This document shows positions 2,088-60,182 of a stretch of DNA of 64,000 nt, in pieces. Within the stretch, counting starts at the first letter, position 1. Every line of letters begins with the position of its first letter. A program made the position numbers and the translations under genes. Origin of the DNA: Candidatus Saccharimonadota bacterium (GTDB lineage Bacteria; Patescibacteriota; Saccharimonadia; Saccharimonadales; SZUA-47); assembly GCA_016700315.1 (NCBI GenBank), contig CP065013.1:774727-838726 (forward strand), written 5' to 3'. A model generated the notes under the pieces. The model was not told the origin of the DNA, did not search any database, and was given only the letters and a program-made list of their open reading frames with translations.

Positions 2088-3113
2088 ATGGGACGTGCTA
2101 GAGCTATAGGTTTAACAGTAGGATTATTTGGTGCTGGAGTTGGTGGGTCGTTGCTAAAAGGGGGAGAGGTTAGCGCACACGTGCCTTTAGTTACTCCGAC
2201 CTGTGACTCTCTGGATATCGATCTATCAAGGTATGAGGATAATGGTACGGGCCAAAACAACATTATCAGAGTTGTTGTAGATGGTACTCTAGTTACGAAC
2301 TCATTATTCGGCAGCAGATATGTCAAATCTATAGAGCTGAATCCCGCACAGAAACATGACTATGAGGTCACAGTAGACGCCAACAGGTTGATTGGCGATC
2401 CTGTAAAATGGGATTTTTCAACTAGCGGTACCACTGAGAAGTGCGTGTCTCCAACCGACCCCACAGAAAGTACCGAAGCTTCAACGACTACATCCACCAC
2501 CGAAGCTCCAACTACGACTACATCTACCACTGAAGCTCCAACTACGACTACATCTACCACTGAAGCTCCAACTACGACTACGTCGACAACTGAAGCCCCA
2601 ACTACGACTACATCTACCACTGAAGCTCCAACTACGACTACGTCGACAACTGAAGCCCCAACTACGACTACTACATCTACCACTGAAGCTCCAACTACGA
2701 CTACATCCACCACTGAGGCTCCTACAACTACCACAACCACCGAAGCTCCAACTACGACTACATCTACCACTGAGGCTCCTACAACTACCACAACCACCGA
2801 AGCTCCAACAACGACTACATCCACCACTGAAGCTCCAACAACGACTACATCCACCACTGAGGCTCCTACAACCACCTCAACCACTGAAGCTCCAACAACG
2901 ACAACTACCGAAGCCCCAACAACGACTTCAGCCACAGAAGCTCCAACAACCACAACAACTTCTGATGTTGTGCACACTACAACCACTGTTAGCGACAGAG
3001 AGACTCCAGGCACCGGTTCAGAACCAGGCGGCGTAGTATTATGGGCCAGTATAATTACTGGTTCAGGGTTAGCGATCTACGGTGCATCGCGTATTAGGAA
3101 AAGGACTGTCTAG
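2088..3113 (+). CDS. Thr-rich mucin-like surface protein with C-terminal hydrophobic anchor plus basic tail
   Basis: About 13 tandem STTEAPTTTTS repeats; C-terminus TPGTGSEPGGVVLWASIITGSGLAIYGASRIRKRTV resembles a cell-wall sorting signal. Confidence 0.7.
   Translation: MGRARAIGLTVGLFGAGVGGSLLKGGEVSAHVPLVTPTCDSLDIDLSRYEDNGTGQNNIIRVVVDGTLVTNSLFGSRYVKSIELNPAQKHDYEVTVDANRLIGDPVKWDFSTSGTTEKCVSPTDPTESTEASTTTSTTEAPTTTTSTTEAPTTTTSTTEAPTTTTSTTEAPTTTTSTTEAPTTTTSTTEAPTTTTTSTTEAPTTTTSTTEAPTTTTTTEAPTTTTSTTEAPTTTTTTEAPTTTTSTTEAPTTTTSTTEAPTTTSTTEAPTTTTTEAPTTTSATEAPTTTTTSDVVHTTTTVSDRETPGTGSEPGGVVLWASIITGSGLAIYGASRIRKRTV
2470..2960. repeat. 33-nt tandem repeat array (about 13-14 copies) encoding TEAPTTTTSTT units
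   Basis: Near-identical repeats accgaagctccaactacgactacatctaccact directly visible. Confidence 0.85.
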
Positions 3114-3718
3114 CTCTTCTTCGGCCTAATCAGCAGCCATAGTACTTCTGCTAAAATCAGGAAGAATACACAGTAAAACCCTACTTCTATGGCAAGCTCT
3201 GCTTTGTAGCCTTCGTTGAAATGCGTATGGAAGTACCACCAAGCGCTAAGTATATATAAGGCAATCGTGCATAGGGTGGTGACAAGTATTGAAAACTTTT
3301 TTAGCAGCAGTGAAGAAACCACAATCGGCAGAGTAAACAATATTACGGCTCTACTCGACATACCGCGCTGAGTGTAAATACTGAAAGTTGCGAGAGCTAG
3401 ATCGGCAGTTATTAGAGCCCAGATAACTCTCCTATGATGGCCGTGATCTCTGTTTGGTTTTGAAGAGTAAAACCAGGCTAAAATGTAGACGCTGGTTACG
3501 ACAAAAAGCGCTAGCCAACGCTGTTTGGCAGCGAAAGGTGTGATTAGATTCCAGGCATCAGAGAGGACGATGTAGACTGCATAAATTAATGCTAGAACTA
3601 TGTGTAGTTTAGCCGCAGGTCTTGAAACAGATTCTAGCCAATGATCGAGTTTTTTTTCGATGACTTTTTGTTTTTTCATTAACCTAATAAGTAAAGCATA
3701 AAACAAGATCCTGCGCAA
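3110..3718 (-). CDS. polytopic membrane protein, unknown function
   Basis: 202-aa ORF with 5-6 hydrophobic helices. Confidence 0.55.
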   Translation of the reverse strand: MRRILFYALLIRLMKKQKVIEKKLDHWLESVSRPAAKLHIVLALIYAVYIVLSDAWNLITPFAAKQRWLALFVVTSVYILAWFYSSKPNRDHGHHRRVIWALITADLALATFSIYTQRGMSSRAVILFTLPIVVSSLLLKKFSILVTTLCTIALYILSAWWYFHTHFNEGYKAELAIEVGFYCVFFLILAEVLWLLIRPKKS

Positions 3719-3753
3719 AAAAGTTCACAGGATCTTGATTGTTATCGTAATTT

Positions 3754-3927
3754 TTAGGCTTCTACGATTTCGGCATCGGCGGAAGCTCGTGCAACAGCCT
3801 CACAGCCTCGCTTGGCACCTGCTTTGTCGGCGTATTCTTCGCCTGTAGCAACTACTTCGCCATTACCGGCTTTTAGACGCCAACGGTAACCGTTTTTACT
3901 TTCATAAATCTCAAATTTTGCTGCCAT
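3754..3927 (-). CDS. YegP/DUF1508 (UPF0339) small protein
   Basis: 57-aa ORF not in track: MAAKFEIYESKNGYRWRLKAGNGEVVATGEEYADKAGAKRGCEAVARASADAEIVEA; FEIY-x-GY-RWRL-A-NGE core typical of YegP. Confidence 0.55.
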   Translation of the reverse strand: MAAKFEIYESKNGYRWRLKAGNGEVVATGEEYADKAGAKRGCEAVARASADAEIVEA

Positions 3928-4051
3928 GTTTAAGTAACCTCCTTAATTTAGTATCTTCATTTTACTCTCTCCGTGGCCTATCGGTCTACGGAAAATGGCT
4001 ATTGTTGACATTAAGACTATAATAAAAGCATAAGACTAAAGGAGAAAAACA

Positions 4052-4576
4052 ATGAAAAAAATAAAACTTATGAGCGCTGCCTTCTGCCTAATAGCCGCAA
4101 GCTTGCTCATGCTAGGGAGTAATTATGCATCCCTCACCGTAAAGGATCAGCTTTCAGCCCAAAAAATATCATTTCCAGATAAGGCAACGTTAGAAAAAGA
4201 CAACTCCAAGCTGGTCTCTTTTGCCGACAAAGCTGTAGATACGGGTGATGAAGCGAAAGCTTATTCGGATTACATCAAAGGCCACTTGGCAAAAGTTGCC
4301 AATGGCAAAACCTATTCGGAGGTAAGCGGCGAGTTTCAAAAAGATCGAACCAACAAAACCCTAGAGGCCCAGAGAACTAATCTTTTCATGGGCGAGACGT
4401 TACGCGGTTTACTACTCAACGCGTGGGGTTGGGGCTTAGTTGGAAAAATTGCTCTATGGGCCTCGTATGCAGTGTTCATAGTTTCGGTTGGACTGTTAGT
4501 GTGGGCAGTAGCCGACAGTGGTACTCGTAAATCGCTGCCAGCCCATACGGTTGCAAAACGAAAAGCCAAAAAGTAG
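4052..4576 (+). CDS. secreted/lipoprotein-like hypothetical protein with C-terminal TM helix
   Basis: N-terminal MKKIKLMSAAFCLIAASLLMLGSNYAS signal-like segment; C-terminal hydrophobic stretch plus KRKAKK. Confidence 0.5.
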   Translation: MKKIKLMSAAFCLIAASLLMLGSNYASLTVKDQLSAQKISFPDKATLEKDNSKLVSFADKAVDTGDEAKAYSDYIKGHLAKVANGKTYSEVSGEFQKDRTNKTLEAQRTNLFMGETLRGLLLNAWGWGLVGKIALWASYAVFIVSVGLLVWAVADSGTRKSLPAHTVAKRKAKK

Positions 4577-5646: not shown

Positions 5647-7263
5647 TCAATCATATATTGGGGATTGGCCAAGCGGTAAGGCAACGGGTTCTGGTCCCGT
5701 GATCGGGGGTTCGAATCCCTCATCCCCAGCCATTTTCGGACTTTTTAAGAATTGGTCGCCCAAATGGGCGGCTTTTTCTTTGGCTGCGCGGAGCGCAAGC
5801 CAGATGTTTTCTTGGGGGGAATTGGAGCTACGGCGCGGCAGAAGCCGCGCTTGTTTTTTAGATAAAAAGAGGTTCAATCCGTCAATTTCAGCAAAAGCGG
5901 CTTTTATGGCAATCGGCTCGGCGTTTGTGGCTATTTTCTTGAGAGAAACAGCCGTTTTGAGCCACTGGCGCATAGGTTCAACCCAACTATTAGCGGCAAG
6001 TGTAAGTTTGGCGATTTGTTCTTCAAGCGACTTCTTTTCACTCATTAGTTCGGCTTGCTTGGTTTTGTATGTCGGCTGGTCAATGTCTTGGTCTAGGTAA
6101 CTGTCCAGAAGTCGCTGTAACTTGCTTTGCAAGTTACGCACCTTTTCTTGTGCTTCGGCTATGAATACGCCAGTGGTTCGCTCGGCTGTTTTCTCGTCCT
6201 CGTTCAGCATTTGCTCAAGCGTAGTTGCCCACGCGCTCGGCAGGGCGTAGCCCTGCAAAATATCGGACAACTGCGCCACAAGCTGTGGTTCGGTTATGGC
6301 TAGTTCAATGCACTTCATTATTTTACTTTTGCGCGTGCAACGGTAATAGGTGTATTCGTGTATATTGCCGTTCTTTTGGTGCTTGACTTTCTTTTCGGCA
6401 GTAATTGCCATATTGCACACGCCGCAAATTAGCAAACCGCATAAGGCTTGTGGCGCGTTCGCGCCTTTTCGCTTGTGCCCGCGCTTTTCGGCTACTGCTT
6501 GCACCGCGTCAAACAGTTTCTTGGACATAATCGGCGTGTGCTTGCCCTCGTACATCTCACCAGCATATCTAAAATGTCCGTAGTAAAACGGATTTGTCAG
6601 CATATATTTGATTTGGTCTTTTTTGAGGGGCAAGCCGCCGCTGGTTTTTATGCCGTTGTCGGCAAAATAGTCGGCAATCTCCTGCAACCCTTTGTCGCCT
6701 TTGCTGTACAGCTCAAAAGCCGATACAACCAGCGGCGCACGCCGTTTATCTACAACAATAGTGCGGGTACGCACATCATTTATGTAGCCGAGCGGTGCAA
6801 GTCCAGGCATTTCACCGCGTCTGACTTTTTGGCGTAGCCCACGCTTGGTGTTCTCGGACAGATTGTCTACATAGTATTTGCTCTGACCAAATGCGATGGA
6901 CAGCATAAACTTGCCCTGTGATGTGTTCTCAAACCAAAATGTCGGAAACTTCAGATTGGTCAGGTGCGTTTGGTCTAGCAAATATACGATTTGTCCGCCG
7001 TCAATGGAATTACGGGCAAGTCTGTCGGGGTGCCACGCGATTATACCGCTGGCTTCGCCAGCCTCAATGCGCTTCAACATCGTGCCGAACTTCGGGCGGC
7101 CTGGTATTTTAGCGGTGCGCTTTTCAATAATGGTATCTACAATATGCAAGCTGTTATCTCTGGCATACTTCCGCAGTTCGGCAATCTGCGCTTCAATACT
7201 TAAAACCTGCTTGTCCTCTACGTCTGTACTCTTGCGAGCGTACAAAAAGTATTTTTCGTTCAT
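5647..7263 (-). CDS. large serine recombinase (phage-integrase/TnpX/CcrAB-type); C-terminus uncertain because the ORF reads through IR-A and the antisense of tRNA-Gln with no stop
   Basis: N-terminal YARKSTDVEDKQVLSIEAQ catalytic Ser motif; recombinase domain; zinc ribbon CGVCNMAITAEKK...YYRC; C-terminal coiled coil. Confidence 0.85.
   Translation of the reverse strand: MNEKYFLYARKSTDVEDKQVLSIEAQIAELRKYARDNSLHIVDTIIEKRTAKIPGRPKFGTMLKRIEAGEASGIIAWHPDRLARNSIDGGQIVYLLDQTHLTNLKFPTFWFENTSQGKFMLSIAFGQSKYYVDNLSENTKRGLRQKVRRGEMPGLAPLGYINDVRTRTIVVDKRRAPLVVSAFELYSKGDKGLQEIADYFADNGIKTSGGLPLKKDQIKYMLTNPFYYGHFRYAGEMYEGKHTPIMSKKLFDAVQAVAEKRGHKRKGANAPQALCGLLICGVCNMAITAEKKVKHQKNGNIHEYTYYRCTRKSKIMKCIELAITEPQLVAQLSDILQGYALPSAWATTLEQMLNEDEKTAERTTGVFIAEAQEKVRNLQSKLQRLLDSYLDQDIDQPTYKTKQAELMSEKKSLEEQIAKLTLAANSWVEPMRQWLKTAVSLKKIATNAEPIAIKAAFAEIDGLNLFLSKKQARLLPRRSSNSPQENIWLALRAAKEKAAHLGDQFLKSPKMAGDEGFEPPITGPEPVALPLGQSPIYD
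5659..5732 (+). tRNA. tRNA-Gln (anticodon CTG)
   Basis: TGGGGAT acceptor; GCCAAGCGGTAAGGCA D-arm; anticodon loop TTCTGGT; GGTTCGAATCC T-arm; 3' end ATCCCCAGCCA; near-identical in layout to E. coli tRNA-Gln. Confidence 0.9.
5728..5863. repeat. IR-A left copy (136 bp), begins with the last 5 nt (AGCCA) of tRNA-Gln
   Basis: 100% identical to the reverse complement of 7414-7548 by direct comparison. Confidence 0.9.
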
Positions 7264-7953: not shown

Positions 7954-8643
7954 ATGTCCGCCATAGGAATACTTGGCGGTATGGGGCCTCAAGCAAGCAA
8001 TAAGCTGTATGAGCTACTCATTAAGGGTACGCAGAACTATACGCCTGCCGCCGTTGATGATGACTATCCAGAAATTGTCTTGCTGAACGTCCCCGTACCC
8101 AACTTCATATCAGACAAAAGCGAATTGCCAAATGCGAGGCAAATGCTTATCGAACGCACAAAGCTGCTTGAACAAGCAGGCTGTACCGTCAATGGTATCG
8201 CCTGTAATACAGCACACATCTTACTGCCCGAACTGCAAGCAGTAACAAAAGTGCCGTTCTTGGCCATACCCGCGTTAGTGGCAGATAACATTAAGGCCGC
8301 TGGCTACAAGCGAGTAGGCTTGTTGGCTACGCCCACAACCTTAAACTCTACGATATATGACGAGGCTTTAGCCGATGTCGCTGAAATAGTGCGGCCAGAC
8401 ACTACATTTGCAGAGCAAATTGAGCAATACATCTATAAAAAGCTCAATGACAGTTTGACGGAACGTGAAAGGCAGCAATTTAGGCGACAGGTTAAAACAT
8501 TTAAGGAAGCGTACAACCTAGAAACAATTATTCTAGGCTGTACAGAATTGCCGCTAGTATACGGTGCCATTGATAGTGCGGATGTCATCGACACGTTGCA
8601 AGTTCTAGCCGATGAGCTGCTGAAAGAGTATTTTACTCCTTAG
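7954..8643 (+). CDS. aspartate/glutamate racemase family protein (aspartate racemase-like)
   Basis: MSAIGILGGMGPQAS start, NTAHILLPEL and GCTELPLV motifs of the Asp/Glu/hydantoin racemase fold. Confidence 0.8.
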   Translation: MSAIGILGGMGPQASNKLYELLIKGTQNYTPAAVDDDYPEIVLLNVPVPNFISDKSELPNARQMLIERTKLLEQAGCTVNGIACNTAHILLPELQAVTKVPFLAIPALVADNIKAAGYKRVGLLATPTTLNSTIYDEALADVAEIVRPDTTFAEQIEQYIYKKLNDSLTERERQQFRRQVKTFKEAYNLETIILGCTELPLVYGAIDSADVIDTLQVLADELLKEYFTP

Positions 8644-9283
8644 CAAGTTTCTCTTGGCTCGAACCGTTGATGATGTAAACATCACCGTCACGAAAGGTTT
8701 TATGTGGTATGTTGTTGCCCACAACATACTCATATTCCTTTTCGACTGCTTCGGACTCGTGGTGGTTTGAGTGAAAGTGTACGATTGGGTAGAAATCTAT
8801 ATAGCCCAAACCGTCCCATATTTCGCCAGACTCGTAGCCTGCTGCGCTTGCGTCTTTGTCATCGACCAGCTCAACGCCTTTGAGCGATTTTGTGAGTACA
8901 CAGAACGCTGCACTATAACCAGCATAGACCAGTTTGTCGGTTTCTATGAGTTCCCGAAAAACTTTGTCAAAACCACTTTGCTTAAAGGCTTTTGCGAGTA
9001 TAAATACATTTCCACCACTGAACCAAACTAAGTCGTATTGCTCCATTTTTTCAACGATGCCGTCTTTGCCAAAATAGTGGCGTAAATCTAGTTCTTCTGG
9101 CTGATAGCCGAGGCTTTTCATATCTTCAAGTTCTCGTTTGAGGACGATGTCATTTCTGACATCTGGCTCTGTACTATCAAGAGCATTAACGCAAACGGCC
9201 ACTTTTGCCGCTGGCTTACCAACCAGCTCTTTTAGTTTTTCGGTGTGATCTCCGAGGCGATACGATGACATATAGAGTTTCAT
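8633..9283 (-). CDS. peptidase S51 family (peptidase E / alpha-aspartyl dipeptidase-like)
   Basis: LVWFSGGNVFILAKAFKQSGFDKVF...YAGYSAAFCV motifs; start chosen at MKLYMSSY just outside IR-B. Confidence 0.75.
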   Translation of the reverse strand: MKLYMSSYRLGDHTEKLKELVGKPAAKVAVCVNALDSTEPDVRNDIVLKRELEDMKSLGYQPEELDLRHYFGKDGIVEKMEQYDLVWFSGGNVFILAKAFKQSGFDKVFRELIETDKLVYAGYSAAFCVLTKSLKGVELVDDKDASAAGYESGEIWDGLGYIDFYPIVHFHSNHHESEAVEKEYEYVVGNNIPHKTFRDGDVYIINGSSQEKLAKE

Positions 9284-9319
9284 AAGATAAGCATAGCAAA
9301 TCGCTAGGCTTGCAGCTAC

Positions 9320-34545: not shown

Positions 34546-35055
34546 ATGGCAAATAAATCTCAACGGGCTGCGGCATTGATGTTAGCGGGTTTGTTCTTTT
34601 TGACTACGGTCGGAACAACAGCTTACGTTATTTGGCAAATTAACCGCGAAGACCCAGTCGCAACGGGCGATCAAATTCAGACACCAACTAATAACAACCA
34701 AACGGAGAAAAAAGTGCTAAAAGGTACACCGCTAGCGGATTTCACGCCAACCAAAGAGCCGATCAGTTCTATTCAAAAAATCGACACAGTTGTAGGCTCT
34801 GGAGCAGAAGCTGTGGCGTCGAGTACGGTGACAGTTAATTATACGCTAGCCAATATGGACGATGGTGTAGTTCGCGAAAGCTCGCTCGACAGCCAACCGC
34901 TAACTAGCCCCCTATCTGGTCTAATTAAAGGCTGGCTAGATGGCGTGCCCGGTATGAAAGTTGGCGGTAAACGACGTCTGCTGATACCATCGGCTCAAGC
35001 TTACAACGACGGCAAAGACCTCGTTTTTGACATCGAACTACTTGATGTAAAATAG
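34546..35055 (+). CDS. FKBP-type peptidyl-prolyl cis-trans isomerase, membrane/signal anchored
   Basis: VTVNYTLANMDDGVV...GWLDGVPGMKVGGKRRLLIPSAQAYND FKBP signature. Confidence 0.8.
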   Translation: MANKSQRAAALMLAGLFFLTTVGTTAYVIWQINREDPVATGDQIQTPTNNNQTEKKVLKGTPLADFTPTKEPISSIQKIDTVVGSGAEAVASSTVTVNYTLANMDDGVVRESSLDSQPLTSPLSGLIKGWLDGVPGMKVGGKRRLLIPSAQAYNDGKDLVFDIELLDVK

Positions 35056-35219
35056 CGAAAAATGGACTAAAAACCACAACATATAGCGTATTGAAAAATT
35101 TTCAGACCCTATATACAATTAGAACCATAAGCTCTTCTAATAAACAAAAATGAAGAGAAAAAGCATTAAAAACTAATAGAAAAACCCCTAAAAAGTGGGC
35201 AAAAAGGAAACCAGAAAAA

Positions 35220-35468
35220 ATGAGTAAAAAAGTAACCGTTTTCACGACTTCAACATGCGCTTATTGCGTTATGGTTAAAAAATACCTAGACAGCAAAGGC
35301 GTAGCCTACGATGTAGTAAACCTAGAAGAGCAGCCACAACGCCAAGCAGAAGTCATGGCTAAAAGTGGGGCTATGACAGTGCCAGTCACGCTGGTGCAGA
35401 ACGATGACTTGAGCGAACAAGTGATTGTTGGTTTCAATCTGTCAAAACTAGCGCCAGCTATTGCATAA
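35220..35468 (+). CDS. glutaredoxin-like (NrdH/Grx) small redox protein
   Basis: VTVFTTSTCAYCVMVKKYL with CxxC. Confidence 0.7.
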   Translation: MSKKVTVFTTSTCAYCVMVKKYLDSKGVAYDVVNLEEQPQRQAEVMAKSGAMTVPVTLVQNDDLSEQVIVGFNLSKLAPAIA

Positions 35469-35576
35469 GATCTATAAAATCTAAATCCTAAATCATAAAT
35501 TCTAAAAAATCTATATAAAATTTAAAGTGCTAATTATTTTTGAGTAAAAAACATCAAAAAGAGTTACAATAAGTTT

Positions 35577-35927
35577 GTGAATGAGGGTGTACAGACGAAG
35601 TATGATTTAGAAGAGAGGACTCTGGAATTCGCTAGGTCAATAAGAGGGTATTACCTAGGAAAACAAAGTGCCTACTTGATACAAGACGATCTAAAACAAG
35701 TTATTAGATCGTCTGGCTCAATAGGCGCTAACTATATTGAAGCTAATGATGGACTAAGCAAAAAAGACAGTATCTTAAGGATGAAGATAGCCAAAAAAGA
35801 GGCACGCGAAACCATTTATTGGCTAAAGCTCCTAGATGCCCCTGAAGATCTCATAGAGGAAGCAAGACAAATATCATTCATATTAGCTTCTATAATTAAT
35901 AAATTGAGTGAAAAAGAAAGGAGCTAA
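35577..35927 (+). CDS. four-helix-bundle protein (23S rRNA intervening-sequence protein family)
   Basis: IGANYIEANDGLSKKDSILRMKIAKKEARETIYWLKLL conserved block. Confidence 0.6.
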   Translation: MNEGVQTKYDLEERTLEFARSIRGYYLGKQSAYLIQDDLKQVIRSSGSIGANYIEANDGLSKKDSILRMKIAKKEARETIYWLKLLDAPEDLIEEARQISFILASIINKLSEKERS

Positions 35928-35984
35928 TTTTTGAGCTTTTTAAATTTTTTAGAATTTAGAGTTTAGAAATTAGAATTTTAATAC

Positions 35985-37154
35985 ATGAAAGATGTTTTAT
36001 TATATGGGGCTTCGTGGTGTCCGTTCTGTCGTGCAGTCAAGAATTGGCTGGACACCAAAGGCATCAAATACTCTTATAAAGATGTTGATGAGGCTGGCGT
36101 GCGCGATGAAATGAAAACGCATGTGCCCAACAACGAAACAATTCCAGTCATAGTTATCGACGGCAAAGGCTATGTTAACCCCGAAATTAGTTTCTTGGCT
36201 CAAGAGCTTAACATTGCTGCGGCCACAGACAAAAAAGTCTACGATGTAGCAGTAGTTGGCGCCGGACCGTCGGCTTTGAGTGCCGCAATCTATACAACCC
36301 GCGAAGACCTTGACACGGTGTTGATTGAAAAAGGCGTCATTGGTGGCTTGGCAGCCATCACCGATCAGGTGGATAACTATCCTGGATTCCCAGAAGGTGT
36401 AACTGGTTTGGATCTTGCTGATAATCTACAAAAACAGGCAGAGAGATTTGGTACGAAGTTTGAATTTGCCCAGGTTGAGGCGATTGAGACCCGACCAAGT
36501 GGCGAAAAACGCGTAGTTACCACTGACGGCGAGCTTTTTGCCAGAGCAGTATTAGTGGCAACAGGTAGCGACTACAAGAAGCTGGGTATACCTGGTGAGC
36601 AGGAGTTCTATGGACGTGGCGTTCACTACTGTGCGACCTGTGACGGTCCCGTGTTTCGTGATAAAAAGTTAGTGGTAGTTGGCGGTGGCAATTCTGCCGT
36701 TCAAGAAGCGATTTTCTTAACCAAGTTTGCTTCACATATTGACCTTCTAGTCCGAGGCGACCAGATGCGAGCTAGCGATGTTCTGCAGCACGAGTTAGAA
36801 AAACACAAGGATAAGATAACTATACACTTTAAAACTCAGCCGCTAGAGGTGGTTGGCAACAAGTTTGTTAGTGGTATAAAGACGAAGTCTGACGGTCAGG
36901 ACAAGTTGTTTGAGTGTGACGGTGTTTTTGTATTCATAGGCCTACTGCCTAACACCGACTTCTTAAAACATAGCCTCGAACTCGATGAAGTTGGGTTCGT
37001 GAAAACCGACGAGCGTTTGCAAACCAGCATGGAAGGCGTTTTCGCATCTGGCGACGTTCGAAGCGGTGCAACTATGCAAATCGCTAGTGCTGTCGGCGAG
37101 GGCGCTACCGCTGCTCTCAAAATTCGTGAATACCTCGAAGCAAAAAACCGATAA
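35985..37154 (+). CDS. trxB: glutaredoxin-domain / thioredoxin-disulfide reductase fusion
   Basis: N-terminal CPFC glutaredoxin module fused to a TrxR with VVGAGPSALSAAIY FAD site and CATCDG redox-active disulfide. Confidence 0.85.
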   Translation: MKDVLLYGASWCPFCRAVKNWLDTKGIKYSYKDVDEAGVRDEMKTHVPNNETIPVIVIDGKGYVNPEISFLAQELNIAAATDKKVYDVAVVGAGPSALSAAIYTTREDLDTVLIEKGVIGGLAAITDQVDNYPGFPEGVTGLDLADNLQKQAERFGTKFEFAQVEAIETRPSGEKRVVTTDGELFARAVLVATGSDYKKLGIPGEQEFYGRGVHYCATCDGPVFRDKKLVVVGGGNSAVQEAIFLTKFASHIDLLVRGDQMRASDVLQHELEKHKDKITIHFKTQPLEVVGNKFVSGIKTKSDGQDKLFECDGVFVFIGLLPNTDFLKHSLELDEVGFVKTDERLQTSMEGVFASGDVRSGATMQIASAVGEGATAALKIREYLEAKNR

Positions 37155-40724: not shown

Positions 40725-40873
40725 GCCTAAAACTCTTCAAGGCTCCAATCGTAATATTTGGGAGCAACTCAATTTGCATGAATGTACGACATAAAAACCA
40801 CGATCGTGGTTTTTATGTTGACACACCGCTGTAACCTTATAGGGGTTAAAGGTTTTTGGGGTATAATTTGGGT

Positions 40874-48057: not shown

Positions 48058-48770
48058 CTATTTTATGAAGGAGTTTTCGATGCGTGTTTTATTGTGTTCA
48101 TATTGTTCGTTGATTATTTTTCGGGCGTAGTTTAGGTCGTTCGTAATATGGTAGAGCTTACGATCTCCTTTGCTGATTAAACCATTCTTGAGCATATGAC
48201 GCTTGATGTAGCGATCGAGCGGGTTCCAGAATTTCTTACCAACTAGGATTATTGGAACCGGCGCCATTTTGCCAGTTTGGATTATTGTTATAACCTCAAA
48301 AAACTCGTCGAATGTGCCAAAACCCCCAGGAAAAAAATGAAACCATGTGAATAGAAAGTCATCATAACTTTACGAGTGAAAAAGTAGTTAAAGGCGAGGC
48401 TGCTGGTAGTGTAAGGGTTGAGGTGTTGTTCTTTAGGCAATACTATGTTAAATCCAATCGAGACATGCTGCTCATCGAACGCGCCGCGGTTGCTCGCTTC
48501 CATGACGCCACCACCACCGCCAGAAACTATAGCAAAGCCGTCTTGTGCTAGCATGGCAGCTAAATCGTGGGCTTCGCGGTAAGCTTTGAATCTGTTGGAA
48601 ATTCTTGCTGACCCGAAAAAAGTTACTCGCTTTGGGTATTTTTTTAAGATCTTGAAGGCTTCTTCGAATTCTTCGTCACTTGTACGTAGCTTGCGTGATG
48701 ATTTCTGGATACTGGCAATCTGCTCGGCGCTCATTTTCCATACTTTATCTTCGTGTGTGTGTTTGTGCAT
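48058..48770 (-). pseudogene. LOG-family (cytokinin riboside 5'-monophosphate phosphoribohydrolase-like, TIGR00730) gene frameshifted at an A7/T7 homopolymer (48330-48336)
   Basis: Upstream ORF ends ...FNYFFTRKVMM; alternative frame after the T7 run gives FFPGGFGTFDEFFEVITIIQTGKMAPVPIILVGKKFW, the canonical LOG motif. Confidence 0.65.
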
Positions 48771-49390: not shown

Positions 49391-51358
49391 ATGACTAAGT
49401 TTAAGATAACGAGCGACTATAAGCCCGAAGGAGATCAGCCGGAGGCCATAGAAAGCCTAGTAAAGGGGCTAGAAAATGGGGCCAAGGAACAAGTTTTGCT
49501 TGGAGTAACTGGTTCTGGTAAGACTTTTACCATGGCTAATGTTGTGGAGCGGGTTCAACGCCCAACGTTAGTAATTTGCCATAACAAAACTTTAGCAGCC
49601 CAGCTGTACGAAGAGTTTAAAAGTTTCTTCCCAGACAATGCAGTGCACTATTTTGTATCATACTTTGATTACTATCAGCCGGAAGCCTATATACCAAGAA
49701 GCGACACATATATAGAAAAAGACAGTGACATAAATGAAGAGATCGACCGCCTGCGCCACGCAGCGACGGACTCTCTGCTAACCCGCCGTGATGTTTTGAT
49801 AGTGGCCAGTGTGTCTTGTATCTACGGTATTGGCAGCCCCACAGACTACGCCGATCTGGCCGAACATGTCGTAAAAGGCCAGCGTAAGGTTCGTGATAAG
49901 TTTATTCGTCGCTTGACGGATATCCAGTATCAGAGAAACGACATTGACTTTCATCGAGGTACTTTCCGGGTACGCGGCGATTCTATTGATGTTTTCCCGG
50001 CGGCCGAAGAGCTAGCTTACCGGATAGAGTTTTTTGGCGACGAAGTAGAGAGGATCCTCAAAATTGATCCTTTGACTGGAGAAATACTGGCTAAGCCAGA
50101 GAGAATCGGTATTTTCCCAAGCAGTCACTATGTTACACCGCAGGAAAAGGTAAAATCAGCGCTTGCCAAGATTGAGGTTGAGCTAGCTGAGCGCACAGCA
50201 TACTTTAAGAAACATAATCAACTCCTTGAGGCACAGCGGCTTAACCAGCGTACACGTTTTGACGTCGAGATGCTCGAAGAAACAGGGTTTGTGAAAGGTA
50301 TCGAGAATTACAGTCGCTACCTGACAGACCGCGAACCAGGTGAACAGCCCGCAACGCTGCTAGATTACTTCCCAGATGATTTTTTGATGCTGATCGATGA
50401 GAGTCATATGACCTTACCGCAAATTAGAGGAATGTATAATGGCGACCGAGCTCGCAAAGAGGTTTTGGTAGATTACGGCTTCCGATTGCCTAGTGCATTG
50501 GACAACCGCCCCCTAACGTTTAGTGAGTTTGAGCGGCACGTTAATCAGGTTGTATATGTTAGTGCAACCCCGGCCGAGTACGAGCTGAGCCGCAGCCCTA
50601 AGCCCGTTGAGCAGGTGATTCGACCGACCGGGCTAATTGATCCGCCGATTGAGGTGAGGCCCGTCGAAGGCCAAGTTGATGATCTGATAGCAGAAATTCG
50701 CCAACGGGTTAACGCCAACCAACGAGTTTTGGTGACAACTTTAACCAAGCGTATGAGCGAAGACCTCACCGAGTATCTCCAGGAACTAGGAATGAAGGTT
50801 GCATATCTTCACAGCGATGTTGATACGATGGAGCGAAGCGATATATTGAGGGATCTAAGACTCGGTGTTTATGATGTTTTGGTGGGCATAAATCTACTAA
50901 GAGAAGGGCTAGACTTGCCGGAAGTGTCGCTGGTTGCAATTTTAGACGCCGACAAAGAAGGTTTCTTGCGTTCAGCTCCAGCGCTTATCCAGACAATTGG
51001 TCGCGCCGCAAGACATGAACAGGGCAAGGTAATTATGTATGGCGACGTAATAACCGGTAGCATGAAAACTGCGATTGATGAAACCAATCGACGACGCACA
51101 ATCCAGCAAAGCTACAACGAAAAACACGGGATCACGCCTACTAGTGTCAAGAAGCGTATTGCCGAGCGGCTCAGCCATGAAGATTCGGCCGACGACAAGA
51201 AGAAAAAGATTGACCTGCGCAAAATTCCAAAAGAAGAATATAAGCACCTGATCCGTGATCTAACATCGCAGATGAACTTGGCTAGTGCCAACCTCGAATT
51301 CGAAAAAGCAGCCGAGCTGCGTGACCTAATAAAAGAGATAAACGCAAAGCTTGAATAG
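49391..51358 (+). CDS. uvrB: excinuclease ABC subunit B
   Basis: [12 protein letters not shown] Walker A, helicase motifs, C-terminal UvrB/UvrC interaction helix. Confidence 0.95.
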
Positions 51359-51434
51359 AAATAGATTAAAAAAATTTTACATGAGTAATAGAATAGTGTT
51401 ATAATAACTTTTAATAAGTAATTAGGCGAACTAT

Positions 51435-52742
51435 TTGAAATCTATTGTTGATGAGTTCTGGGACGAATTAAAAAATAACAGCATTATATATTTATATATA
51501 TTTTTATTTTTTAATGGCATAATTTTTATAATTTACTATAAATTTAAGTCATTCAACTCCAGTAGTCTTTCTGACATATTTTATCTATACTCTGTCCTGA
51601 CTCTTGTAACACTACTGATAAAATACGTTGCATGTCTTTTCCACCCACAAGATAGATGGGCGATGATTAGGCCTCGAAAATGGCCGTCAATAGACATTAT
51701 AATACCTGGTTATAATGAAGGAAGTGCTGTGTATGAAACTGTACGAAGTATAAATAATTCAAACTATCCTAAAGATAGATTGAATATCGTCCTAATTAAC
51801 GATGGTTCAACAGATGATACGCTTGCACATATGAAGCGAGCTCAAGAAAAATACAAAAAGCGAAATGTTGCTGTCATTAACTTTAGAAAAAATAAAGGTA
51901 AAAAAGAAGCGATGGCGGCTGGTTTTCGAAAAACAAAAAGTGAGTACGTAGTTTTTGTTGATAGTGATAGTAAAATAAAAAAAGATTGTTTGAAAGAGTT
52001 GATTCGTCCTTTTTATAGTAAAAATTCAAAGATTCGTGCCGTATCTGGTCATGCACTAGTATGGAATAGTGATGTAAATCTACTAACAAAAATGCAAGAA
52101 ATTAGATATTTCAATGCTTTCAGATCCACTAAAGCTGCCGAGAGTCTTCTTGGTTTTGTTTCATGTTGTCCAGGATGTTGTTCTGCATACGAAAGAACCG
52201 CTATGAAAAAGATCCTAAAACCGTGGTTAGATCAATCATTCTTAGGAGCCAAATGTACATATGGCGATGACAGAAGTCTCACTAATTTCATTCTTAAAGA
52301 CGGACATCATACTGTATATAACCAAAAAGCTGTAGCATATACGATAGCCCCGCATACATATAAAAAATTTGCTAAACAGCAATTAAGATGGAAAAAATCT
52401 TGGGCACGTGAAAGTGTCGTAGTAATGTCGTTCGTATGGAAGAGAAATCCTATAGTATCTCTCATGATTGGTATAGATATCATTACACCTTTCCTTGCAC
52501 CAATAGTAATTATTCAGATCTTCCTTTTCCACTCTTTTGTTAACACTGCGTCATTTTATGCTTACCTAGTCGGAATTTTAATATTTGCGAGTTGTTTCGG
52601 CTTATTTTACAAAATACACAATTCACAAAGTAAAAACTGGCTTCGAGCTTCGCTAATTTCATCGCTGGTCAGCATTATTTTATTCTGGCAATTGCCATAC
52701 GCACTTATGACGCTAAAAGATACCAAGTGGGGTACGCGATAA
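51435..52742 (+). CDS. processive family-2 glycosyltransferase of the hyaluronan-synthase / NodC / chitin-synthase type
   Basis: N-terminal TM helices, DGSTDDT, DSDS, GDDRSLTN and QQLRWKKSW motifs; about 30% GC versus about 48% in flanks. Confidence 0.75.
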   Translation: MKSIVDEFWDELKNNSIIYLYIFLFFNGIIFIIYYKFKSFNSSSLSDIFYLYSVLTLVTLLIKYVACLFHPQDRWAMIRPRKWPSIDIIIPGYNEGSAVYETVRSINNSNYPKDRLNIVLINDGSTDDTLAHMKRAQEKYKKRNVAVINFRKNKGKKEAMAAGFRKTKSEYVVFVDSDSKIKKDCLKELIRPFYSKNSKIRAVSGHALVWNSDVNLLTKMQEIRYFNAFRSTKAAESLLGFVSCCPGCCSAYERTAMKKILKPWLDQSFLGAKCTYGDDRSLTNFILKDGHHTVYNQKAVAYTIAPHTYKKFAKQQLRWKKSWARESVVVMSFVWKRNPIVSLMIGIDIITPFLAPIVIIQIFLFHSFVNTASFYAYLVGILIFASCFGLFYKIHNSQSKNWLRASLISSLVSIILFWQLPYALMTLKDTKWGTR

Positions 52743-52822
52743 GAGAGATTTTTCTTTTTTTGAAGAATTTAACAATTCATGTATAATAGTTGTAATAGGT
52801 TTTTTTAAAGGAGTGATTTTTA

Positions 52823-52993
52823 ATGAGTGAAACTGGAAATACAGGAACAGCAGTTCTCGGAGCGTCAACAACAGTAGCAAGCACTGTGGCGTTAGCTAAG
52901 ACAGGAGCTCCGTTAGTGATGTCTATAGCCGTAGGCGCGACGCTAATAACTTTAACACTTACTGTTTTTCTTAGCAGAAGAAAAAGCAACTAA
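52823..52993 (+). CDS. 56-aa peptide with LAKTG-hydrophobic-SRRKSN C-terminus (sortase sorting-signal-like) and no N-terminal signal peptide
   Basis: AAAGGAG SD 8 nt upstream of ATG; MSETGNTGTAVLGASTTVASTVALAKTGAPLVMSIAVGATLITLTLTVFLSRRKSN. Confidence 0.4.
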   Translation: MSETGNTGTAVLGASTTVASTVALAKTGAPLVMSIAVGATLITLTLTVFLSRRKSN

Positions 52994-53010
52994 AAAAATA
53001 GCCAAACAGT

Positions 53011-54348
53011 ATGACTAAGAATGATCTTGGTTCAGTTTGTGTTATTGGTCTTGGATATGTTGGCTTACCTCTTGCCGTACAAGCGGCGCACAAAGGATTT
53101 ACCGTATTTGGTATCGATCTTAATAAAGACATTGTCGATAAAGTAAACAGCAGAATCTCACCTTTTGTAAATGATCCTGGATTTGAACATGAGTTACAAA
53201 GCCTTGAAAGTGGTAGCCTAAAAGCCCATACATCTTATGGCCCTATCGTATCTTCTGATGTAGTTATCATATGTGTTCCGACTCCTACTGATAATAACAT
53301 CCCAGATTATAGTTATGTAGAATCTACTGCGGAAGAAATAGCTAAAAGATTGAAAAAAGGTCATCTTATACTATTAGAGAGTACTATTAATCCTGGAGTA
53401 ACACGAGACAAAGTTTTACCAATCCTTGAGTCAGCGTCGGGCCTTACAGCAGGAATAGATTTCCACCTTGCGCATTGTCCAGAAAGAATTGACCCAGGCA
53501 ACAAAAGATTTAATGTTAAAAACCTAAATCGTGTCGTGGGTGGAATTAGCTTAGAGTGTAGCGAAAAAGCGGCCGCGTTTTATAGAAAAATTATAAACGC
53601 TAAAATCATTCAACTTGATACGACTGAAGAAGCCGAATTTGTAAAATCATGGGAAAATAGTCACCGCAATGTAATGATAGCGCTAGCAAATCAAGCTGCG
53701 GTTATTTGTGATTCATTAGGAATGAATATCGATAATGTACTACTTGGGCTCAATTCAAAAGTTGAACAATTCGGTCTCAAGCTAGCTAAGCCCGGTATTG
53801 GACCTGGTGGGCATTGTATCCCAGAAGATATTCACTATGTTATTAGCAGGGCAAGACAAAGCGGTTTAGACACTAGTCTCTTAGACGGTGCTGTACGTTT
53901 TAATGACGGTATGCCGAGTTACGCAGTGTATAAACTTGAAACTATGGTCAAATCTGATGGTAAAAATTTTAAGAGTATGAAAGTTGGAATACTAGGAATA
54001 GCCTACAAAGAAAACGTAGCTGACCCAAGAAGGAGCCCTGCAATTGATCTCGTGAATTCGCTCGTCCAAAAATGTCAAAAAGTTATTATACATGACCCGT
54101 ATGTTGATAGGTCGTACCTTGAATCAATAAAGAACGTGGGAGTGTCAAGCACACTAGATGAGTTATTAAACACATGTGATGCGTTTATTCTAGCAACAGC
54201 TCATACGGTATATATAGATTCTATTAATAAAGAAATTATTAAGAAGAGTAGCATTAAATATGTGCTTGATGGACGTAATGCGTTTGATACGGAAATGTTT
54301 AGAAACGTAGATGTTAGGTACTCCGGAATAGGTAAAAACTTAAAATAG
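53011..54348 (+). CDS. UDP-glucose/GDP-mannose dehydrogenase family (nucleotide-sugar 6-dehydrogenase)
   Basis: VIGLGYVGLP NAD fold, GGHCIPED catalytic Cys region. Confidence 0.8.
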   Translation: MTKNDLGSVCVIGLGYVGLPLAVQAAHKGFTVFGIDLNKDIVDKVNSRISPFVNDPGFEHELQSLESGSLKAHTSYGPIVSSDVVIICVPTPTDNNIPDYSYVESTAEEIAKRLKKGHLILLESTINPGVTRDKVLPILESASGLTAGIDFHLAHCPERIDPGNKRFNVKNLNRVVGGISLECSEKAAAFYRKIINAKIIQLDTTEEAEFVKSWENSHRNVMIALANQAAVICDSLGMNIDNVLLGLNSKVEQFGLKLAKPGIGPGGHCIPEDIHYVISRARQSGLDTSLLDGAVRFNDGMPSYAVYKLETMVKSDGKNFKSMKVGILGIAYKENVADPRRSPAIDLVNSLVQKCQKVIIHDPYVDRSYLESIKNVGVSSTLDELLNTCDAFILATAHTVYIDSINKEIIKKSSIKYVLDGRNAFDTEMFRNVDVRYSGIGKNLK

Positions 54349-54368
54349 GTACTCATTTCTTTAAAGAA

Positions 54369-54890
54369 ATGATGCGACCGATAACCTTCGAAGATCTTTC
54401 GGGCGATGTTTGTGGAACTAGCACTCATACTACCGATATTCTTCATCCGGCCATCAAAGTAGTCAAGGAAGGGCCTGCATCGGCTCCAGCAGGCGGCAAA
54501 GTCACCTACAACTTCAGCGTTACAAACACAGGTGATACAACTTTGTCGATTGAATCGGTTATAGACGATATTGCCGGAGTGGGTACTTACGTATCAGGCG
54601 ACACCAACTCAAATGCTAAGCTAGATGCCGGTGAGATCTGGCTGTACCAAGCGCAGTACATGGTACCATCTAGCCAAACCGCCAATGTTAATAACACAGT
54701 GGTTGTCTGCGTTAGGGACGGCTTGCAGCTACAGGTTTGCAGTAGCGACAAGCACAGCTTGACTATTCCAAAAGTTCTAGGACTTCAAACTACAGGGCAT
54801 GGCACGACAGCGCAGCTAGTCTGTGGACTGTCGATAATCTTTGCTGTTAGTTTGTTGCTAGCCACGCGCAAAATCAAAACAGATCGATAA
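54369..54890 (+). CDS. DUF11-like repeat-domain surface protein (possibly a fragment) with C-terminal LQTTG-hydrophobic-TRKIKTDR tail
   Basis: KVTYNFSVTNTGDTTL typical of conserved-repeat-domain proteins; no signal peptide. Confidence 0.45.
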   Translation: MMRPITFEDLSGDVCGTSTHTTDILHPAIKVVKEGPASAPAGGKVTYNFSVTNTGDTTLSIESVIDDIAGVGTYVSGDTNSNAKLDAGEIWLYQAQYMVPSSQTANVNNTVVVCVRDGLQLQVCSSDKHSLTIPKVLGLQTTGHGTTAQLVCGLSIIFAVSLLLATRKIKTDR

Positions 54891-54908
54891 ATCCTAAAAC
54901 GCAAAAAA

Positions 54909-54938
54909 GAAAAGCCCCAGCATTGGCCGGGGCTTTTC
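54909..54938 (+). terminator. rho-independent terminator (bidirectional hairpin)
   Basis: AAAAGCCCC...GGGGCTTTTCT. Confidence 0.55.
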
Positions 54939-54957
54939 TGGTATAATTATTTATAAG

Positions 54958-55251
54958 ATGTCGAAATTAACTCTGGATGAAGTTTTTCATTTGGCCAAAT
55001 TGGCTCGCCTCAAATTGTCTGAAGATGAAGCGCTACATTTTAAGGACGAGTTAAGCGCAATTTTGAGCTACGTCGAGATGCTGAATAACGTTGATGTTGG
55101 CGACCTTATGCCGACTTATCAGGTGACTGGCTTACAAAATGTGACCAGGCCAGACGTAGTCGATACTAATCAAACCTTAAAAGCCGACCTGTTCAAAAAC
55201 CTTCCGGCTACCCAAGATGACCAGATCAAGGTTAAAAGGATGATTGTATGA
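54958..55251 (+). CDS. gatC: Asp-tRNA(Asn)/Glu-tRNA(Gln) amidotransferase subunit C
   Basis: Size, VxHxAxLARL N-terminus, translationally coupled to gatA. Confidence 0.85.
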   Translation: MSKLTLDEVFHLAKLARLKLSEDEALHFKDELSAILSYVEMLNNVDVGDLMPTYQVTGLQNVTRPDVVDTNQTLKADLFKNLPATQDDQIKVKRMIV

Positions 55252-58751: not shown

Positions 58752-59301
58752 GATGCAAAAGTGGCAAAGAGTGGGCACGGACAAAACGGAAAAAGTTGGC
58801 TGGAGGTGGCTGGTTCATAAAAAATTCCGCCTACCAAATGGGTATGAAGGCGTATTTACTACTTTAGATAGTGTTGGCAAAAAATATGCATGCGTAATTG
58901 CTCTTACTAAACAGAACGAGGTTATAATAGTTCGTCAATTTAGGCCTGGCCCAGAAGCAATATTTGATGAAGTCATTGGTGGCGCCGTTGAGGATGGCGA
59001 AGTACCCCTCGAAGCAGCAAAGAGAGAATTAGCCGAAGAAGCAGGGTATCGCGTTGGAGCTATAGAGTGCATAGGGTCTGCTTTCAAAGACTCATATACC
59101 AATGGGTATTATTATTTTTATCTGGCACTCAACTGTGAGCCTCTTGCTAGAGGGAATAATCCAGATATTTCTGAAAATATTGAGGTGCGTAAAATTAGCA
59201 TTGATCAGTTGATAAAAAACGCAAAGATTGGTCTAATGTCCGATCCGCAAGCTGTACTTATGGCGTATGATAGGCTTATGGAAATAAAAAAGGGGGAATG
59301 A
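58741..59301 (+). CDS. NUDIX hydrolase
   Basis: GGAVEDGEVPLEAAKRELAEEAGY Nudix box. Confidence 0.65.
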   Translation: MGYKMQKWQRVGTDKTEKVGWRWLVHKKFRLPNGYEGVFTTLDSVGKKYACVIALTKQNEVIIVRQFRPGPEAIFDEVIGGAVEDGEVPLEAAKRELAEEAGYRVGAIECIGSAFKDSYTNGYYYFYLALNCEPLARGNNPDISENIEVRKISIDQLIKNAKIGLMSDPQAVLMAYDRLMEIKKGE

Positions 59302-60182
59302 TGAGAGTTAGAAAAGCAATTATCGCAGCTGCTGGTTTTGGAACTAGATTTTTGCCGCAAACAAAAGCCATGCCAAAAGAGATGTTGCCCCTAATCGATA
59401 AACCAGTTATTCAGTACGTTGTTGAGGAACTGGTCTCTGCCGGCATCCAAGATATTATTATCGTCACAGGCTACAGCAAGCGTAGTATTGAGGATCACTT
59501 TGACTACCCAAACCAAGACCTCGTAGCAAATTTAAAGGCTGGGGGTGAGGCAAAAGCGGAATTACTGGACGAGGTTAGGCAAATCGCCAACCTAGCCAAT
59601 TTTATTTACGTCAGACAAAAGGGGCCGTATGGTCTTGCCACCCCTATACTTTCGGCAGCGCATCTGATCGGAGACGAGCCATTTATTTTTACGCTCGCCG
59701 ATGACTTTTTTGTTGCAGAAACGGGCAGGACAAAACAACTTATTGAAGTCCACGAACAGTATCAGTCCAGTGTGTTCGCCTGCAAAAAAGTGATTAACGA
59801 CGTAGAGTACGACCGATATGGCATTGCAGCGGGTGAAAATATAGATGAAAACACCATAAAAATGTCGACAATAATCGAAAAACCAGGCAAACAAAACGCC
59901 CCATCAGATATGGCTAGTGTCAGTGGCTACTTATTCACTCCAGATGTAATAAAATATGTCGAGAAAGCTGCCGAGTCGCATACTGATGGGGAGCTAATGC
60001 TCCAGCCTATAGTGCAAAAAATGATAGATGACGGGCATGATTTTTATGCAAGAAAGATTGTCGGAGCTGAGTACTTTGACACAGGCACAAAACTAGAATA
60101 CTTAAAAACAGTTTTTAACTTTGCGCTCAAAAATGAAAAAATGGCCGAGCCGCTTAAAGATTACCTTAGAACAATGTTATAG
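59298..60182 (+). CDS. galU: UTP--glucose-1-phosphate uridylyltransferase
   Basis: AAGFGTRFLPQTKAMPKEMLPLIDKP N-terminal signature. Confidence 0.85.
   Translation: MMRVRKAIIAAAGFGTRFLPQTKAMPKEMLPLIDKPVIQYVVEELVSAGIQDIIIVTGYSKRSIEDHFDYPNQDLVANLKAGGEAKAELLDEVRQIANLANFIYVRQKGPYGLATPILSAAHLIGDEPFIFTLADDFFVAETGRTKQLIEVHEQYQSSVFACKKVINDVEYDRYGIAAGENIDENTIKMSTIIEKPGKQNAPSDMASVSGYLFTPDVIKYVEKAAESHTDGELMLQPIVQKMIDDGHDFYARKIVGAEYFDTGTKLEYLKTVFNFALKNEKMAEPLKDYLRTML

Follow-up and report, generated by a model that had tools for sequence, protein, structure and literature searches.

A low-GC cassette of about 3 kb in a 64,000-nucleotide stretch of a Candidatus Saccharimonadota bacterium genome (contig CP065013.1, positions 774,727 to 838,726 of the forward strand; hereafter the window, with coordinates counted from its first nucleotide) appears to have been acquired and to make an acidic, chitin-related surface or capsular polysaccharide, not the hyaluronan of a hasABC locus, a reading to which we assign a probability of roughly 0.6. 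The cassette encodes a membrane family 2 glycosyltransferase (GT2), a 56-aa mini-protein carrying an LAKTG motif and a nucleotide-sugar dehydrogenase, and lies between uvrB (49391-51358) and gatC (54958-55251), which enclose four open reading frames (ORFs), all on the same (+) strand. A previous reading made from the letters alone (the sequence-only reading) had proposed a hasA-hasB-type capsule locus, an assignment not supported by the placement of the dehydrogenase in the acetamido-sugar branch and the core synteny of galU described below; its gene list had also omitted the 56-aa ORF between the GT2 and the dehydrogenase. The insert and its three principal genes are as follows.

51359..54957, no strand: variable insert between uvrB and gatC, its low-GC part running from about 51360 to 54368 (GC profile, GC at third codon positions (GC3), comparative loci)
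51435..52742, + strand: hyaluronan synthase (HAS)-like membrane-integrated GT2 synthase, 435 aa, TTG start (Pfam, NCBIfam, PDB, AlphaFold2 (AF2), Foldseek, motifs, tree)
52823..52993, + strand: small ORF, 56 aa, MSETGNTGTAVLGASTTVASTVALAKTGAPLVMSIAVGATLITLTLTVFLSRRKSN (metagenome gene calls, TIGR01167, linkage to GT2)
53011..54348, + strand: predicted nucleotide-sugar 6-dehydrogenase of the acetamido-sugar branch, 445 aa (profiles, PDB ranking, tree, GGHCIPED motif)

Sequence and modelling support the GT2 as a membrane-integrated synthase of the HAS/NodC/chitin-synthase superfamily with a HAS fold. All of the processive-synthase motifs and N-terminal transmembrane helices attributed to it by the sequence-only reading were recovered, namely DGSTDDT (residues 123-129), DSDS (176-179), GDDRSLTN (277-284) and QQLRWKKSW (315-323), together with helices at 2-14, 16-42 and 48-67 in the AF2 model. 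The segment QQLRWKKSWARE (315-326) and the terminal WGTR (432-435) align to the HAS of Chlorella virus (CvHAS), the Xenopus HAS (XlHAS1) and Bacillus HasA, and the HAS-type forms GDDRxLTN, RWxKSxxRE and terminal WGTR are present where NodC has GEDRHLT, RWARSTFRD and WLSR. Pfam matches were to Glycos_transf_2 (8e-29), Glyco_tranf_2_3 (1.6e-26) and Chitin_synth_2 (7e-22), while the best NCBIfam models, NodC (TIGR04242, 183.7 bits, cut-off 550) and PgaC (TIGR03937, 123.1 bits, cut-off 422.3), were both matched below their cut-offs. Against PDB sequences the protein matched CvHAS (141 bits, 4.5e-40) and XlHAS1 (131 bits, 7.5e-37), the next match falling to 55 bits. The AF2 model, built on 35 homologues (pLDDT 90.9, pTM 0.88), retrieved only XlHAS1 or CvHAS structures among its top 13 Foldseek matches (E 6e-23 to 2e-17, TMq 0.67-0.77, the leading matches having TM 0.76-0.77), with cellulose and chitin synthases weaker (E 6e-13 and worse, TMq 0.47-0.59), and the fold is predicted to include its own translocation channel. 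The 35-sequence family alignment has 57 invariant columns, including the catalytic motifs, which the window protein keeps by definition. Residues K177 and R341 of CvHAS lie near the GlcA carboxylate (PMC12987647); their equivalents in the GT2, K156 and R318, are also kept in NodC and PgaC-type enzymes and so do not discriminate the substrate.

In a neighbour-joining tree (284 columns, 300 bootstraps, few references, weak deep nodes) the GT2 family was monophyletic at 82%, leaving out Bacillus HasA, XlHAS1, CvHAS and NodC, and joined HasA in 7% and NodC in 1% of the bootstraps. As placed by these comparisons, the GT2 is a HAS-like synthase of a separate sister family, neither of the proven HAS clade nor a NodC. 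The earlier likening of the protein to class I HAS thus stands as far as its closest solved relatives, in sequence and fold, are concerned and fails for membership of the clade formed by HasA, the vertebrate HAS and the chlorovirus HAS; the phylogeny that had been called for separates it from NodC and does not place it with HasA.

The dehydrogenase has the three domains of the UDPG_MGDP_dh family (PF03721, 5e-44; PF00984, 6e-22; PF03720, 5e-21), to which it had already been assigned, and passes TIGR03026 (377.8 bits, cut-off 189.8). Its likeness to HasB, the other half of that assignment, was not upheld. The catalytic motif is GGHCIPED, in which GGHC is as in TviB and WecC, compared with GGYC in Ugd and GGSC in HasB, and the enzyme shares only about a quarter of its residues (about 25% identity) with HasB and Ugd. 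Among solved relatives, UDP-ManNAc-type 4r16 (243 bits), Cap5O (210 bits) and 3g79 (194 bits) scored well above the best UDP-glucose dehydrogenase (142 bits) and streptococcal HasB (71 bits), and the GT2-linked dehydrogenases of every phylum all scored higher to Escherichia coli WecC than to Ugd or Bacillus HasB. A neighbour-joining tree (405 columns, 300 bootstraps, few references) split the acetamido-sugar clade, including the window dehydrogenase, from the UDP-glucose dehydrogenases at 100%, united the GT2-linked, Saccharibacteria and TviB-like sequences at 89% with WecC outside, and placed the window enzyme within a Saccharibacteria clade at 100%. Saccharibacterial homologues at 50-59% identity carry the JGI name UDP-N-acetyl-D-glucosamine dehydrogenase; the closest plasmid homologues are named 'nucleotide sugar dehydrogenase' only. 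The WecC-type model (228 bits, cut-off 459), its archaeal counterpart (279 bits, cut-off 750) and the TviB model (190.6 bits, cut-off 592, a lower score than for archaeal WecC) were all matched below cut-off, and a tblastn search of the window and some 100 related loci with an E. coli WecB probe found no homologue of the UDP-N-acetylglucosamine (UDP-GlcNAc) 2-epimerase. The enzyme is probably a UDP-GlcNAc 6-dehydrogenase, and the acid sugar supplied is likely to be the uronic derivative of GlcNAc (GlcNAcA), not GlcA. Since the dehydrogenase belongs to the acetamido-sugar branch, UDP-glucuronate, and hence hyaluronan, is not the best prediction.

A GalU-like ORF does lie 5 kb downstream (59298-60182; TIGR01099, 263 bits, below the cut-off of 326.8), as had been noted, but it is no part of the locus. 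In 14 relatives without the island galU likewise stands 3' of gatB, with or without a NUDIX gene between them, so that its proximity, a consequence of uvrB-gatCAB-galU core synteny, is coincidental and the cassette has no hasC analogue.

That the low-GC segment is a horizontally acquired insert, as the sequence-only reading had suggested, is well supported. In 300-nt windows GC was 0.28-0.42 across 51.25-54.4 kb compared with 0.42-0.53 in the flanks, which confirms the reported drop, the quoted flank value of about 48% being slightly high (whole-window GC about 0.445). The membrane GT2 and the soluble dehydrogenase both have a GC3 of 0.28, the two lowest values among the 66 ORFs of the window (otherwise 0.30-0.56), and their GC at second codon positions (GC2) is ordinary at 0.35-0.36. 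The anomaly therefore sits at synonymous sites and is not an effect of membrane-protein or amino-acid composition, the soluble enzyme being as AT-rich as the membrane one. Comparison of loci points the same way: of 80 metagenome loci fetched around UvrB relatives (63-79% identity), 45 Saccharibacteria loci carry both uvrB and gatC, and all keep the order up411-uvrB-gatC-gatA-p142-gatB. The uvrB-gatC gap is shorter than 100 nt in 15 of the 45; in the remainder it holds unrelated inserts that range from 0.3 to 5.6 kb and differ in gene content. A GT2 or dehydrogenase homologue occurred in none of the 45 loci. A junction that is conserved, often empty and devoid of these genes in relatives identifies the 3.6-kb insert as lineage-specific cargo at a recombination-prone site. 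Close relatives of the module formed by the GT2 and the small ORF occupy other genomic places, near resolvase, integrase, Replic_Relax, DUF87, reverse-transcriptase and relaxase genes. A search of the insert for flanking direct repeats, a tRNA and an integrase or other mobility gene returned only short chance-like repeats, and the sole tRNA found in the window is at 5659. The uvrB/gatC junction itself is a hot spot of variable inserts in Saccharibacteria, a minus-strand ORF of about 320-370 aa recurring in several. Elsewhere in the window a second low-GC kilobase (35001-36000, GC 0.341) holds short ORFs at 35220-35468 and 35577-35927.

The wider GT2 family bears on the kind of polymer made. 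Of 1345 proteins retrieved as homologues, most belong to Patescibacteria and DPANN archaea and many have the JGI label 'hyaluronan synthase'. The family occupies at least 571 loci in GTDB species representatives; the matches listed include Patescibacteria, Woesearchaeota, Solirubrobacterales, Acidobacteriota, methanotrophs, Holophaga, Frankia and others, at 37-45% identity. Partners were counted within 3.5 kb of the GT2 in 80 GTDB genome loci. A dehydrogenase of the acetamido-sugar branch was found in 51 of these, a polysaccharide deacetylase of 450-515 aa (Polysacc_deac_1) in 46 and a family 18 glycoside hydrolase (GH18) in 31, with at least one such partner in 77. Typical orders are dehydrogenase-GT2-deacetylase in Patescibacteria and dehydrogenase-GT2-GH18-GH18 in Solirubrobacterales (e.g., L012:8610-12765 and L039:8538-13253); no description of either operon in bacteria was found in the literature, nor anything relevant on the system in Patescibacteria, the candidate phyla radiation (CPR) or Saccharibacteria. 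Since both deacetylases and GH18 enzymes have GlcNAc polymers as their substrates, these partners argue for a GlcNAc-based backbone, and the neighbour counts taken together point to a GlcNAc-based, partly acidic polymer. The family partners would thus point to an acidic, chitin-related product of a kind not described from nature.

Nearer to the window, GT2s at least 52% identical to its own form a close subclade with 97% bootstrap. The order GT2-small ORF-dehydrogenase recurs there in locus L010 (58% and 55% identity) and in L092. Accessory genes differ within the subclade: the window, L010 and L092 have a dehydrogenase, whereas L008, L093, L094 and L188 have a deacetylase, sometimes joined by GH18, L189 has a sortase and L091 has none of these. 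Locus L092 (2780-9299), of Saccharibacteria type and flanked by Replic_Relax, DUF2958 and DUF87 genes, contains two dehydrogenases and two synthases, the second of which (8028-9299) groups in the neighbour-joining tree, with weak support, with Bacillus HasA, XlHAS1 and CvHAS and not with the family of the window GT2. Viral carriage of the module was seen on a single IMG/VR contig (IMGVR_UViG_3300019888_000005, 66.8 kb), which bears a GT2 homologue 37% identical to that of the window (L104:6001-7236). A plasmid of Paenibacillus cellulositrophicus (L099:1499-9129) has the order deacetylase-dehydrogenase-GT2-deacetylase-GH18, with a GT2 of 625 aa that is 35% identical to the window's; its dehydrogenase ORF (2992-4236) is absent from the PLSDB gene table. 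The bacterium is cultivated, which would make it a possible model for experiments on the family.

The 56-aa protein has a Gly/Ala/Ser/Thr-rich N-terminus, an LAKTG motif, one transmembrane helix and a basic tail. It is called as a gene on six metagenome contigs and passes the LPXTG_anchor model TIGR01167 (17.6 bits, cut-off 15.9), with homologues in L091 (13.3 bits) and L010 (12.8 bits) below that cut-off; against NF058583, 'LAXTG motif-containing small protein', it reaches 17 bits, below the cut-off of 65. No N-terminal signal peptide was found in it. A single-pass membrane protein of 55-98 aa stands directly 3' of the GT2 in nine of ten distinct close loci (the window, L007, L008, L010, L011/L189, L091, L092, L093 and L188; L094 is without it). 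Besides the single helix, these proteins have in common a Gly/Ala/Ser/Thr-rich N-terminus and a basic tail, and in five of them (the window, L007, L091, L092 and L011/L189) LAKTG, LANTG or LSTTG directly precedes the helix. In the L189/L011 lineage the GT2 has 52-53% identity to that of the window and is followed in its operon by a 55-aa LSTTG mini-protein and, starting 8 nt later, a sortase (PF04203) (L189:3759-4500, identical in L011:2846-3409); the sortase translation shows a TIYTC motif and a VVVGHS segment. The L189 sortase used as a probe found no sortase in the 64-kb window, an uninformative result, as sortases diverge and the window covers a small fraction of the genome. The 56-aa protein is probably an accessory subunit or a sortase-processed surface anchor.

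The remaining features of the insert concern its expression signals and its right edge.

51376..51405, + strand: promoter-like site TTTACA-18-TATAAT with an extended -10 TG, 11 of 12 consensus positions (consensus match only)
52760..52787, + strand: weaker promoter-like site TTGAAG-16-TATAAT, 5' of the small ORF (consensus match only)
54353..54372, no strand: perfect 20-bp palindrome TCATTTCTTTAAAGAAATGA at the right edge of the low-GC segment, overlapping the next ATG
54369..54890, + strand: DUF7507-repeat ORF, 173 aa (Pfam DUF7507, 6e-12, one repeat)
54908..54942, no strand: bidirectional terminator-like hairpin before gatC, 14-bp stem with 8 GC pairs and a T run (consensus match only)

The first promoter-like site, a strong one, lies 30 nt 5' of the GT2 start and the GC-rich hairpin 3' of the fourth ORF closes the unit; a signal scan of the insert found no terminator between its genes. 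An identical 435-aa GT2 product is called on 12 metagenome contigs, and the six of these that are shown come from six different samples and all carry the 56-aa ORF and the dehydrogenase as well. The DUF7507 ORF has a native GC of 0.479 and a C-terminal LQTTG-transmembrane-RKIKTDR tail resembling a sorting signal; no N-terminal signal peptide was found in its sequence, and an in-frame stop stands upstream at 54333-54335. It may be what is left, at the C-terminal end, of a longer surface protein that the insertion possibly truncated, and may be co-transcribed with the cassette. The perfect palindrome, present as had been described, overlaps the start codon of the DUF7507 ORF (ATG, 54369), lies where GC rises from low to native values, and as RNA would form a hairpin (-11 kcal/mol, z = -2.8) covering the AUG of that ORF. 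The 64 kb contain only two palindromes of at least 20 bp, where Markov simulation predicts 0.08 per window. A role as a repeated operator was considered and rejected, as the window has no second copy. The other palindrome (40794-40813) is the core of ATAAAAACCACGATCGTGGTTTTTAT, an intrinsic-terminator-like hairpin between two ORFs. Two further genes of the window are worth recording. A LOG/SLOG-family (Lysine_decarbox) gene at 48058-48770 (-) appears split into ORFs of 160 and 69 aa, its Pfam match halting at position 61 of 131, and may contain a frameshift or be a pseudogene; the ORF at 2088-3113 has a very high GC2 (0.69) and a tail ending in GGVVLWASIITGSGLAIYGASRIRKRTV, and looks like another surface protein, one whose C-terminus is a membrane or sorting segment.

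On the reading that we favour, the dehydrogenase would act on a UDP-N-acetyl-hexosamine, oxidizing its C6 and most likely turning UDP-GlcNAc into UDP-GlcNAcA. From UDP-GlcNAc, the uronic derivative or both, the membrane GT2 would build a beta-linked polymer, acidic and related to chitin, extruding the chain via its own transmembrane channel as class I HAS do. The 56-aa protein would be a single-pass partner, with an extracellular Gly/Ala/Ser/Thr-rich tail ending in the LPXTG-type LAKTG signal. This is the scheme to which the HAS-fold synthase with its intact motifs, the recurrent linkage to an acetamido-sugar dehydrogenase and a mini-protein, and the foreign composition lead. Several observations weigh against it. 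Neither the GT2 family nor the Saccharibacteria dehydrogenase clade has a biochemically characterized member, and the family joins HAS, with NodC outside, at only 55% in neighbour-joining trees with few references. The dehydrogenase is about 32% identical to TviB-like and WecC references alike, fails every NCBIfam equivalog cut-off and shares with its clade an unusual PEDIHY after the catalytic Cys where others have VDPYY, so that a different substrate is possible; in other Saccharibacteria, members of its clade occur as solitary genes in housekeeping surroundings (beside rpsL/rpoC or elsewhere), and the enzyme is thus not exclusive to the GT2 synthase. Sister loci with a deacetylase and GH18 and no dehydrogenase imply that the GT2 may make a plain GlcNAc polymer. 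The CPR2-type small proteins are without an LAxTG motif, and adjacency to a sortase is confined to one lineage (L189/L011). TM7x has been reported to be without UDP-GlcNAc synthesis, the precursor being presumably host-derived (bioRxiv 10.1101/2022.03.25.485537), and organisms of this kind may thus rely on their hosts for substrate.

The plain polymer is the substance of one alternative, in which the GT2 is a NodC-like synthase of chitin or chitooligosaccharides, or of another poly-GlcNAc, and the dehydrogenase is cargo serving another pathway. NodC, followed by PgaC, is indeed the best NCBIfam model, the closest sister loci have a deacetylase and GH18 in place of the dehydrogenase, and Saccharibacteria dehydrogenases often stand alone. 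We nevertheless regard it as unlikely, because the NodC score is far under its cut-off and the family groups with NodC in 1% of bootstraps, the window contains neither nodA nor nodB, the order GT2-small ORF-dehydrogenase recurs in divergent genomes and a dehydrogenase is adjacent in 51 of the 80 loci. The true hasA-hasB hyaluronan locus, in which the dehydrogenase would make UDP-glucuronate from galU-supplied UDP-glucose and the GT2 would polymerize hyaluronan, could call on the HAS-type motifs and fold, on the JGI label of many family members, on B. anthracis HasA as the best plasmid match of characterized type (32-33% identity) and on the GalU-like gene 5 kb away. It is made very unlikely by the 100% split of the dehydrogenase from the UDP-glucose dehydrogenases, with GGHC in place of GGSC or GGYC and about 25% identity to HasB and Ugd, by galU being core synteny in relatives without the island, and by the position of the GT2 outside the HAS clade (82% for the family, 7% with HasA). 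That the cassette is inert cargo or decaying DNA without current function, as its foreign composition, the lack of mobility genes and the truncated-looking DUF7507 ORF might suggest, is harder still to credit, given three intact ORFs retaining the invariant residues, catalytic motifs included, the identical 435-aa protein on 12 contigs, and a promoter-like site and terminator-like hairpin around the unit.

The acidic chitin-related polymer that we favour would also allow a more speculative and rather improbable extension, in which synthase and mini-protein constitute a novel type of capsule system: a sortase-processed Ser/Thr/Gly-rich peptide primes the GlcNAcA-containing acidic chitin-like chain made by the HAS-like GT2, or anchors it covalently to peptidoglycan. 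If true, these ultra-small epibionts of the CPR would have an acidic coat tethered to the wall, and the family combining dehydrogenase, GT2 and deacetylase or GH18 would be the signature of a biopolymer so far unrecognized, a natural 'chitouronic acid' of many phyla of bacteria and DPANN archaea. The recurrent LAxTG mini-protein and the sortase of one lineage make it a testable idea for how a synthase-dependent polymer could be tied to a Gram-positive-type wall. Saccharibacteria, other CPR bacteria and DPANN archaea live attached to host cells and their surface polymers are little known; the structure of the island shows that such surface traits move between Saccharibacteria, and the family offers a tractable two- or three-gene system for the products and second-substrate choice of HAS-type enzymes.

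Among known systems, the class I HAS (streptococcal and Bacillus HasA, vertebrate HAS1-3 and Chlorella virus HAS) resemble the window GT2 most closely, sharing DxD, GDDRxLTN, QxxRW-KS-RE and WGTR within a single GT2 domain, N-terminal transmembrane helices with a C-terminal transmembrane bundle, and the best sequence and fold matches. Like bacterial HasA, the window protein ends at WGTR, and like HasA with HasB it is linked to a nucleotide-sugar 6-dehydrogenase. It belongs, however, to a separate family (27-36% identity, 82% monophyly), and in contrast to HasB systems its partner is of the acetamido-sugar branch, the LAKTG mini-protein is additional and the unit has no hasC. Closer in logic are the UNGD-CHSL(-deacetylase) clusters of fungi (Fusarium/Trichoderma chs8), chloroviruses and EsV-1, for which horizontal transfer has been inferred and whose product is still unknown (PMC4059230; PMC5122149; PMC7053769). 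There a UDP-GlcNAc 6-dehydrogenase likewise stands beside a chitin synthase- or HAS-like GT2, often with a polysaccharide deacetylase; our literature search found no bacterial or archaeal counterpart. In structural alignments to the window GT2, EsV-1-84 and the viral proteins M1HWF1 and M1HTG7 were 14-15% identical and the top viral match (570 residues) 23%, so that the resemblance is one of logic and not of orthology, and the eukaryotic and viral clusters, unlike the window, are without a mini-protein. NodC is a homologous GT2, and the sister loci pair their synthase with a deacetylase of the NodB family as NodC is paired with NodB, but the window holds no NodB homologue and differs from NodC in TIGR04242 score (183.7 against 550), motifs and bootstrap (1%). 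In PgaCD and IcaAD, too, a GT2 has a small membrane partner (PgaD, IcaD) and a deacetylase, the last being present in the window's sister loci, but PgaC is only 21-25% identical to the window GT2 (TIGR03937, 123 against 422), and the small protein of the window is unrelated to theirs and carries an LPXTG-type signal.

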